IMG/VR virus record: IMGVR_UViG_3300045988_093480
Coordinates: 1 to 47,447 of that record
Origin: a virus
Reading direction: 5' to 3' (one strand)
DNA: 47,447 bases
In this document: positions 46,287 through 46,524 of the stretch, piece by piece
Numbering within the stretch: position 1 is the stretch's first letter
Layout of the letters: the number at the start of each line of letters is the position of its first letter
The notes under the pieces: generated by a model
The model's database searches: none
What the model was told of the DNA's origin: nothing
The model's input: the letters and a program-made list of their open reading frames with translations, nothing else
Made by a program: the position numbers and the translations under genes

Positions 46287-46385
46287 TTATTTACTTGAAT
46301 CTTTCTTTTCCTTATCTTCTATTAGTTGTAAAATTTTTTCTAAAAAATATTCGCCTAATAATAATACCTTTTCTTTGTTTTCCAT
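46287..46385 (-). CDS. 32-aa helical micro-protein MENKEKVLLLGEYFLEKILQLIEDKEKKDSSK
   Basis: Not in the track. RBS AAGGGGG 5 nt upstream of the ATG. TATAAT at 46450..46455 upstream and terminator 46186..46204 downstream. Confidence 0.5.
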   Translation of the reverse strand: MENKEKVLLLGEYFLEKILQLIEDKEKKDSSK

Positions 46386-46415
46386 GTTATCCCCCTTATA
46401 AACAAAATATTTTTA

Positions 46416-46431
46416 TAGAACAAATGTTCTA
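46416..46431. promoter_or_regulatory. Cheo-type LexA (SOS) box
   Basis: TAGAACAAATGTTCTA contains GAAC-N4-GTTC and is a 7+2+7 palindrome. It lies between the -10 box and the RBS of the 32-codon ORF. Confidence 0.55.
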
Positions 46432-46524
46432 CATTTTTTCTTATACTATATTATACACCAATCAAAAAGTATTTGGAATATTTTATATAAATTTCTGCAA
46501 ATAAAGGTAAAATATGTTAATATA

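Follow-up and report, generated by a model that had tools for sequence, protein, structure and literature searches.

Introduction

The closest known system to the locus described here is the AimX-AimC pair of Bacillus arbitrium phages. In the extended arbitrium module (AimX-AimC-AimL), present in the Bacillus phages phi106, BMBtp14, Wbeta and Waukesha92 (PDB 9sf2 and 9iaq), AimC is a short (80-140 amino acids (aa)), RecA-insensitive helix-turn-helix (HTH) repressor, and AimX (29 aa in phi106, 29-80 aa overall) is encoded convergently with and overlapping aimC, in phi106 just downstream of a LexA site. The AimX effector is a protein, not an RNA; it binds the C-terminal helical oligomerisation domain of the repressor and prevents oligomerisation and DNA binding, which the authors liken to SinI-SinR, and aimC/aimL homologues were reported to be rare outside arbitrium systems (bioRxiv 10.1101/2025.11.23.689978). 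Here we analyse a viral genome of 47,447 nucleotides (nt), IMG/VR record IMGVR_UViG_3300045988_093480 (positions 1 to 47,447; this whole stretch is called the window), in which a small open reading frame (ORF) of 32 codons, MENKEKVLLLGEYFLEKILQLIEDKEKKDSSK (46287..46385, minus strand), faces the 3' end of the gene for a 108-aa repressor. In our view, the small ORF probably encodes a LexA-gated antirepressor of 32 aa that would inactivate the non-cleavable repressor and so trigger the prophage after DNA damage.

LexA-controlled antirepressors of non-cleavable repressors have been described in the form of 186 Tum, the Salmonella Gifsy antirepressors (PMC3121763), N15 AntC and Sar of SPbeta/phi3T. 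Sar of the SPbeta-like phages is a LexA-controlled small antirepressor (YopT/Sar of SPbeta has 72 aa) and targets an integrase-fold repressor by DNA mimicry (10.1101/2025.11.27.690993). Modules consisting of a transcription factor and a small-ORF antirepressor are known from Vibrio and other phages, among them Qtip of VP882 (Silpe et al. 2023, PMC10432266). Little has been established about the way in which DNA damage is sensed by the prophages of gut Clostridia, C. difficile phages included, and many of these phages have repressors too short for self-cleavage. A study of phiCDKH01 (2024), in which SOS and LexA are unmentioned, describes knowledge of their lysogeny control as very scant (PMC11172241), and we found no description of such a device for Clostridia phages in the searchable literature.

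Results

Anatomy of the small unit and its putative LexA box

The small ORF is preceded, 4 nt upstream of its ATG, by the Shine-Dalgarno site AAGGGGGA (46390..46397, minus strand). Further upstream lies the 16-nt palindrome TAGAACAAATGTTCTA (46416..46431), a putative LexA (Cheo/SOS) box with 7-nt arms and a perfect GAAC-N4-GTTC core that matches the Bacillus/Clostridium LexA consensus GAAC-N4-GTT(C/T) (PMC4234289). On the other side, the unit ends at a bidirectional terminator-like hairpin (46181..46209/46186..46204, both strands), which was detected by a terminator scan on both strands, reappears in RNA folds and is common to the repressor gene and the small-ORF unit. An AlphaFold2 model of the 32-aa product is a single amphipathic helix comprising residues 2-31, with a predicted local distance difference test (pLDDT) score of 94.7. 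The parts that a sequence-only reading of this DNA had listed, namely a TATAAT box, the palindrome, a ribosome-binding site, a helical 32-codon ORF and the bidirectional terminator, are thus all in place.

The promoter of that reading has to be amended. Its -10 candidate TATAAT is present (46450..46455, minus strand), but the promoter scan yields no qualifying -35 for it, and a second -10 candidate, TATAAG (46440..46445, minus strand), is found 8 nt upstream of the box; both were read from the sequence. The block TGTATAATATA around the two candidates is conserved in two relatives (L001 and L114). Depending on the choice of the -10, the box occupies about +3 to +18 or about +12 to +28 relative to the transcription start, and a repressor bound there would block RNA polymerase. 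At the level of sequence, the box is therefore placed as a LexA operator of an antirepressor gene would be, overlapping the promoter or close behind it (8 or 18 nt beyond the -10 candidates).

The palindrome is the sole GAACN4GTTC in the 47-kb window. In shuffled windows this core has an expectation of 0.23 and occurs at least once in 17% of the shuffles, and for the 16-nt form, with at most one mismatch allowed, the expectation is 0.14. The argument that the arrangement is more than chance rests on the conservation and recurrence described below, not on the box core alone.

Conservation in close relatives

Close relatives, in which the repressor is 96-97% identical, are two IMG/VR contigs, one metagenome contig and ten further contigs, and the small ORF is present in all of them. 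It has 32 codons in every relative but L234, in which it is interrupted by a stretch of N and the called ORF has 40 aa, and it was called as a gene in 10/10 metagenome contigs. The family consists of only two haplotypes, which differ by 4 synonymous and 6 non-synonymous changes. Residues 1-16 are identical to those of the window, save V7L in some contigs; the L001 haplotype has 4 synonymous changes within the first 16 codons, and most of the substitutions in the C-terminal half are charge swaps. The Shine-Dalgarno site and the ATG are invariant among the relatives. The box reads CAGAACAGATGTTCTG in the L001-type relatives: its two outermost positions have changed jointly (T..A to C..G), with the core and the symmetry retained, and the next 10 nt have diverged.

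The block formed by cro, the repressor gene and the small ORF is constant across the relatives, while its neighbours vary. The Ant gene is of the AntA/ANT or the Bro-N/ANT type, the morons encode a lipoprotein, a DUF4429/SHOCT protein, or TPR and DZR proteins, and the window has a tyrosine integrase where most relatives have a serine recombinase. Because the block stays constant while the neighbours vary, the small ORF is, judged by this gene order, part of the immunity cassette and not of the moron region. A more distant family (L087) contains the identical 16-mer at the same position, 27 nt from the start codon, and has the same lipoprotein moron next to it; its repressor (~55% identical to that of the window, a by-eye estimate from the alignment) and its 39-aa small ORF have both diverged.

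Beyond this group, the small ORF is hard to trace by sequence. A scan with a pattern derived from it returned from IMG/VR only the two close relatives already known, none among 185,579 species genomes and one close relative among metagenome contigs, and a tblastn search of the 32-aa ORF against phages gave no match.

Transcript structure and a possible role as RNA

A 16-nt inverted repeat flanks the small ORF (arms 46209..46224 and 46394..46409). The predicted fold of the transcript pairs the 5' leader, Shine-Dalgarno site included, with the 3' untranslated region (UTR) just before the terminator. This fold has a z score of -7.2, and of -4.7 in the L001 haplotype, in whose 3' arm two of the three substitutions retain pairing via G-U wobble. 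The L087 family lacks the repeat, there being no space for a 3' UTR in its loci. In the modelled fold, the pairing could serve as a translational lock on leaky transcripts.

A transcript this unusually structured, with a helix over its Shine-Dalgarno site, would also be compatible with a LexA-controlled unit that acts as RNA on the expression of the repressor, through convergent transcription or as an antisense or structured RNA, the 32-codon ORF being incidental or secondary. The unit is convergent with the repressor gene, in several analogous families there is a 76-106-nt overlap between the small ORF and the repressor gene's 3' end, and an antisense role was once proposed for aimX. We nevertheless consider this explanation quite unlikely. 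The strong bidirectional terminator between the two genes should end the transcript at the stop codon of the repressor gene, no Rfam family was found above threshold, and the invariance of the Shine-Dalgarno site and ATG and the constant length of the ORF point to translation. In addition, what the ~18 families of small proteins described below have in common is a Shine-Dalgarno site and a short helical ORF, and not an RNA sequence. Finally, a recoded aimX allele of phi106 is functional and a start-to-stop change abolished the response, so that the protein is the effector there.

Recurrence of the architecture in unrelated phages

For a survey of other phages, the layout was defined as an ORF of 28-60 aa with a Shine-Dalgarno site, whose start lies 10-60 nt from the box and which is convergent with an ORF matching an HTH profile. 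The exact 16-mer TAGAACAAATGTTCTA was found at 121 sites in 119 loci of IMG/VR, and 10 of the 121 sites have the layout, as compared with 34 of 35,700 random positions in the same loci (0.10%); three further sites pass if an internal start codon is allowed. In an independent second scan, with the LexA-box 16-mer TAGAACATATGTTCTA, the layout is present at 29/119 sites versus 118/33,900 random positions (0.35%). The enrichment over random positions in the two scans is thus ~70-100-fold. Among 95 loci picked by HTH similarity alone, strict boxes are rare (8). The box of L194, located inside a ComEC-like gene, is probably due to chance and was set aside.

These results bear on the possibility that the palindrome and the short ORF of the window are a coincidence in AT-rich intergenic DNA and that the repressor is inactivated in some other way. 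Short ORFs are plentiful in such DNA, and the frequency of the core in shuffled windows given above is in line with this explanation. However, box, Shine-Dalgarno site and ORF are conserved amid diverging DNA, and the identical 16-mer is kept at the same position in the diverged L087 family. Because of the two enrichment tests in particular, chance can be regarded as excluded for practical purposes, and we hold a coincidence to be extremely improbable. Furthermore, phages that have a GC content of 28-57% and unrelated repressors share one and the same 16-mer, which argues that the box is read by a conserved host protein, namely LexA, and not by a phage repressor.

The partner repressors have mostly 108-155 aa (239-266 aa in one family), and those of the other families have in common a tail motif L(S/T/D)(D/E)… followed by an amphipathic helix. 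The small proteins fall into ~18 sequence types, including one large group with the pattern …LIxxI…L..IY.FIK.hL; in the Pfam, PHROGs and PDB searches made with the small ORFs, the only match is a weak one, of L092 to phrog_33111 (E = 4e-4), a family of unknown function. In six loci belonging to four small-ORF families (L092, L112, L073, L054, L089 and L057), the promoter directed towards the small ORF has the box as its entire 17-nt spacer, together with a near-consensus -35 (TTGACA in 4/6) and TAATAT, TATAAT or TATTAT as the -10. In L106 and L039, the box starts 8 nt after a TTGCAC-17-TATACT promoter.

Two pairs of loci are informative about the partner of the small protein. L106 and L039 have the promoter, the box and the first 13 codons in common and then diverge along with their repressors; likewise, the promoter, the box and the first codons are common to L073 and L054, followed by divergence along with the repressors. 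Such co-divergence is the pattern expected of specific interacting pairs. In addition, two small proteins resemble the tail of their own repressor in Smith-Waterman comparisons against shuffles (z = 6.2 for L106 and 7.3 for L057), with YQSLTPENRQKVDSLIATLRDRQS against YSDLNAANRAIVDRLIADLAKSQS. Both come from higher-GC phages in which the small ORF runs, on the opposite strand, into the 3' end of the repressor gene (10887..11039 versus 10963..11361 in L106; 2660..2800 versus 2694..3032 in L057), and no DNA inverted repeat accounts for the resemblance. This suggests SinI-like mimicry of an oligomerisation element in these two phages. The Pfam SinI family (PF08671) gave no match in the eight small ORFs and two repressor tails tested.

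The same data help to judge whether the small ORF may encode a genuine SOS-induced protein that has a target other than the repressor. It might be a modulator of LexA or RecA, in the manner of DinI or of gp7 of GIL01 (~50 aa), an effector of cell division or host physiology, or an excision cofactor. LexA-controlled small phage and host proteins with such roles exist, for example gp7 (PMC4551915; for its role with LexA, see also PMC11323111), the sequence of the peptide gives no functional hint in Pfam, PHROGs or PDB, and that the peptide binds the repressor is something we infer. Against this, the ORF is always tail-to-tail with a short repressor that has no cleavage domain, and the linkage persists while the neighbours swap. 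Moreover, the type of small ORF shifts with the type of repressor in the two pairs of loci, and the tail resemblance in L106 and L057 points to the repressor itself. A target common to all hosts predicts a conserved sequence and not the ~18 types found, and the peptide is without a membrane segment. We therefore regard another target as unlikely.

The repressor and the absence of a cleavage route

The lysogeny repressor (45866..46192, plus strand) has 108 aa and matches only HTH families in Pfam, as the sequence-only reading had proposed for a repressor without an S24 autopeptidase domain. Its AlphaFold2 model (pLDDT 87.6) consists of a five-helix HTH domain (residues 1-62), a linker and a C-terminal two-helix tail (77-87 and 91-107). 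Pfam reveals no Peptidase_S24 domain, and the tail is modelled as a helical hairpin, so that the S24 domain with an Ala-Gly cleavage site that marks a lambda-type CI or LexA-like repressor is not found. Nor did the 30 ORFs scanned in the lysogeny and early regions include an S24 peptidase, an M78/ImmA protease or a member of an AimR-like family, which agrees with the earlier claim that no ImmA-type protease gene is nearby.

In Foldseek searches, the repressor model gave full-length matches to 9sf2_A (the phi106 repressor with AimX), 9iaq (AimC of BMBtp14) and 1b0n_A (SinR in the SinR/SinI complex; 105 aligned columns, E = 8.5e-4), as well as to the structural-genomics proteins 3op9 and 3ivp. 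At the sequence level, the match to 9iaq is confined to the HTH region (E = 0.006).

The nearest relative of the repressor from a named isolate genome, found among the species genomes, belongs to a prophage of Clostridium grantii DSM 8605 (L146; 54% identity over the HTH). An ImmA-like partner adjoins that repressor, and because this relative uses such a partner, the comparison shows differing predicted induction modules attached to one and the same DNA-binding domain. A 112-aa homologue of the repressor (P0005, 53% identical; L237/L238, 3001..3600) was rejected as a comparable locus because its context is not phage-like: type I cas genes (Cas7, Cas5) and a second HTH gene immediately precede it, and a co-directional 34-aa ORF comes after it. 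In Sporolactobacillus shoreicorticis (L202, 5940..6330), a perfect LexA box, TTAGAACACATGTTCTTG, stands ahead of a gene that resembles an ImmA-type metalloprotease, as judged from sequence alone, and that has a gene for a 108-aa HTH repressor and a 210-aa ORF upstream of it. Here the inactivation of a repressor would come under LexA control by another route.

Similar genes in cultured C. difficile phages

A comparable gene is found in cultured phages. The 31-aa gp38 of phiCD38-2, MKEEIKEMLDKVGDKDILEIIYLYLKQKTKK, is encoded convergently with the 117-aa repressor gp39, and 20 records of C. difficile phages contain homologues of gp38 (63-97% identity), often without annotation. The phiMMP04 homologue, gp37, adjoins the repressor gp38 of that phage. 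Two weak matches of phiCD38-2 gp38 in Mycobacterium phages are probably due to chance. The operator of the C. difficile phages is imperfect (CGTACATGTGTTCT) and overlaps the -35 of the small-ORF promoter. In four of them (L226, which is phiCD38-2, 34037..34078, and L243, L244 and L245), the sequence CG(T/C)ACAT(A/G)TGTTCT is kept over the -35, with a core that departs from GAAC at one position, and a CGAAC half-site is present in the promoter spacer of three (L226, L243 and L244), the fourth (L245) having CGAAT. Because the operator is imperfect and overlaps the -35, LexA control in these phages is uncertain.

The phage genome and its lysogeny region

Bases 1..98 of the window are repeated at 47350..47447, and because of this terminal repeat the window is recognised as a complete, circularly closed temperate-phage genome. 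C. difficile siphophages, phiCD38-2 and phiCD146 among them, have large terminases (TerL) that are 65-69% identical to that of the window; together with the low GC content, this suggests a Peptostreptococcaceae-type host. No close prophage was found among the 185,579 species genomes searched, and a nucleotide search of GenBank phages with a 2.1-kb region, in near and distant modes, gave no match.

In circular order, the lysogeny module comprises a minus-strand early operon, the repressor gene (plus strand), the small unit and, upstream of the small ORF and on the opposite strand to it, a 40-aa ORF, a lipoprotein gene and the tyrosine integrase gene (69..1196, plus strand). The early lytic operon is headed by a cro-like HTH gene (45402..45635, minus strand; 77 aa, Pfam HTH_3 1e-11) that is divergent from the repressor gene. 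It is followed directly by a first BRO-N/KilAC (ANT) antirepressor-type gene (44534..45394, minus strand; 286 aa, Bro-N 3e-29, ANT 8e-22) and, still within the operon, by a second one (43291..44088, minus strand; 265 aa, Bro-N 3e-14, ANT 6e-14). Both are therefore downstream of cro on the same strand, and the placement of the two BRO/KilAC genes inside the Cro operon was read correctly before. Consensus scans revealed a promoter-like site for the cro operon (TTGACA-17-TATACT, 11/12; 45669..45697, minus strand) and one for the repressor gene (TAGATA-17-TATAAT with an upstream TG; 45758..45786, plus strand).

The operators in the region between the repressor gene and cro are not resolvable from repeats alone. 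The 10-mer ATTTTGTTTA occurs 7 times in the window versus 1.4 times expected, a number reached in 0/100 shuffles. Four copies lie in the 1-kb immunity region and are all kept in L001: inside cro (45439..45448), in the spacer of the cro promoter (45681..45690), downstream of the repressor promoter (45805..45814, plus strand) and in the leader of the small ORF (46399..46408, minus strand). A copy with one mismatch is located at 46210..46219 (plus strand). From its distribution, ATTTTGTTTA may be a half-site of the repressor or Cro operator. If so, the phage would have control over the small ORF too, and the inverted repeat that flanks the ORF could be a pair of protein sites and not an RNA helix.

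Two further features of this region may be mentioned. The 40-aa ORF, MKKKAIIALIVIVVLVIIIAGMPSFKAGFNAGFNAGFNAK (46564..46686, plus strand), is preceded by a good Shine-Dalgarno site; the N-terminus of its product is signal- or membrane-like, and the C-terminal part contains the tandem repeat (AGFN)x3, under which the DNA consists of gctggttttaat x3. The ORF is reminiscent of secreted pro-peptides built from repeated units (Phr/AimP-like), but no receptor gene adjoins it, and it is missing from the relatives, which have other morons at that place. Downstream of the integrase stop codon, positions 1197..1440 are AT-rich and contain repeated GTCAGTAAA(A/T) motifs (e.g. at 1199, 1209, 1230, 1241, 1404 and 1418), which are probably the integrase arm-type sites of attP.

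Discussion

The logic proposed by the sequence-only reading, in which host LexA holds off a tiny gene directed against a non-cleavable repressor, has gained computational support: the repressor has no cleavage domain or protease partner, the operator and the ORF are conserved, the cassette travels as a unit, and the arrangement recurs in other phages. We envisage the following course of events. Lysogeny would be held by the 108-aa HTH repressor while LexA, bound to TAGAACAAATGTTCTA, would block the promoter of the small unit. Upon DNA damage, RecA would be activated and LexA would cleave itself, after which the small unit would be transcribed as far as the shared terminator and its ORF translated into the 32-aa amphipathic helix. 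The peptide would then bind the C-terminal two-helix tail of the repressor, which is presumed to be the oligomerisation element, and formation of the dimer or tetramer and operator binding would be prevented, resulting in derepression of the cro operon. That the peptide would cap the tail is proposed because of the analogy with AimX-AimC. The two BRO/KilAC proteins would act later, as a feed-forward step or in cross-talk with other prophages.

Several observations weigh against this scheme. The signature of purifying selection is seen for the N-terminal half of the small ORF only, and the TATAAT -10 has no qualifying -35. The core of the box is not significant by itself, as it may arise by chance in the share of shuffles given above. 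The assignment of the host, and hence of the specificity of its LexA, derives from the identity of TerL and the GC content. Searches of Pfam, PHROGs and PDB revealed no homologue of the 32-aa ORF, with no match at E<=10 among the PDB chains, which included the 9sf2 complex and its AimX chain. Finally, the similarity of the peptide to the tail of its own repressor is not significant (z = -1.2, Smith-Waterman against shuffles). The idea that the window peptide mimics the tail of its own repressor is accordingly not supported; mimicry holds for L106 and L057 only. Taking these points into account, we still consider a LexA-gated antirepressor the probable function of the small ORF.

A broader proposal, which we put forward as a tentative and rather doubtful one, is that LexA-gated micro-proteins of 30-55 aa, encoded tail-to-tail with short non-cleavable repressors, may be a general SOS induction device of the temperate phages of gut Clostridia, including phiCD38-2 and phiMMP04. 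They would be SinI-like decoys of the C-terminal oligomerisation helices of the repressor, arising repeatedly from the tail or converging on it, so that each immunity type would have its private antirepressor. In the family of the window, the 5'UTR-3'UTR pairing would act as a further lock, at the level of translation, by masking the ribosome-binding site, and would contain copies of the candidate operator motif.

The candidate trigger makes SOS induction of these phages directly testable, and the same predicted device recurs in dozens of unrelated viral contigs, with the same layout in cultured phages of C. difficile. Such genes of ~100 nt, which are often missed by annotation pipelines, may decide whether prophages in the gut are induced by antibiotics such as fluoroquinolones.

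Among the systems with which the locus can be compared, ImmR-ImmA of ICEBs1 and many Firmicute prophages likewise has a short HTH repressor of the same DNA-binding family (the N-terminal domain of ImmR, 7t8i, matches the window repressor) and an induction module immediately downstream of the repressor gene, but no M78 metalloprotease gene was found in the window. The Qtip-type modules are portable too, and in them a small, fast-evolving protein inactivates a cI-type repressor, the small proteins being unrelated in sequence. They differ in having a phage-encoded activator, in being SOS-independent and in that the target repressors are also RecA-cleavable, whereas the switch proposed for the window is relief of LexA repression.

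SinR of B. subtilis (1B0N) is, like the window repressor, whose model it matches over the full length, a repressor of ~110 aa with a phage-type HTH and a C-terminal two-helix hook, through which its small helical antagonist SinI heterodimerises and blocks the oligomerisation needed for DNA binding. SinR-SinI is, however, a chromosomal system of biofilm control without LexA control, and sinI lies upstream of sinR in the same orientation. Homology between an antagonist and a repressor tail is detectable in L106 and L057 only and not in the window.

The sequence-only reading had compared the locus with the Gifsy prophages and 186 Tum. This is right in logic, since in Tum, Gifsy, AntC and Sar, too, LexA represses an antirepressor gene, SOS releases it and a RecA-uncleavable repressor is inactivated, the pairs in those systems being mutually specific. 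No relationship in sequence or fold was detected, however; those proteins are larger (Tum has ~146 aa), and their genes are not placed tail-to-tail with the repressor gene inside the immunity cassette.

AimX-AimC is a closer analogue, and the anatomy of the window agrees with it in 4/6 features. Both have a short HTH repressor with C-terminal helices (108 aa in the window, where the repressor model matches 9sf2_A and 9iaq over the full length), a divergent cro-like gene, a tiny helical ORF convergent with the repressor gene, and just upstream of it a LexA site in phi106 and a putative one in the window. The two features in which they disagree are the presence of aimR/aimP and sequence homology. 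Neither in the window nor in the analogous Clostridia loci is aimR/aimP found upstream of the small ORF, where morons and the integrase gene occupy the other strand, and control would therefore be exerted by LexA only and involve no activator. No sequence similarity of the small ORF to AimX was detected, the repressor sequences are alike in the HTH region only, and the hosts are Clostridia, not Bacillus. Based on these comparisons, the predicted circuit fits the functional kind of LexA-gated antirepressors acting against non-cleavable repressors that is represented by 186 Tum, Gifsy, N15 AntC, Sar and phi106 AimX. The principle is already known, although for AimX-AimC it has been published only as a 2025 preprint whose authors tie it to arbitrium; what appears to be new is its extension to another bacterial class, in an arbitrium-free, LexA-only form that seems to be widespread in the phages of gut Clostridia.

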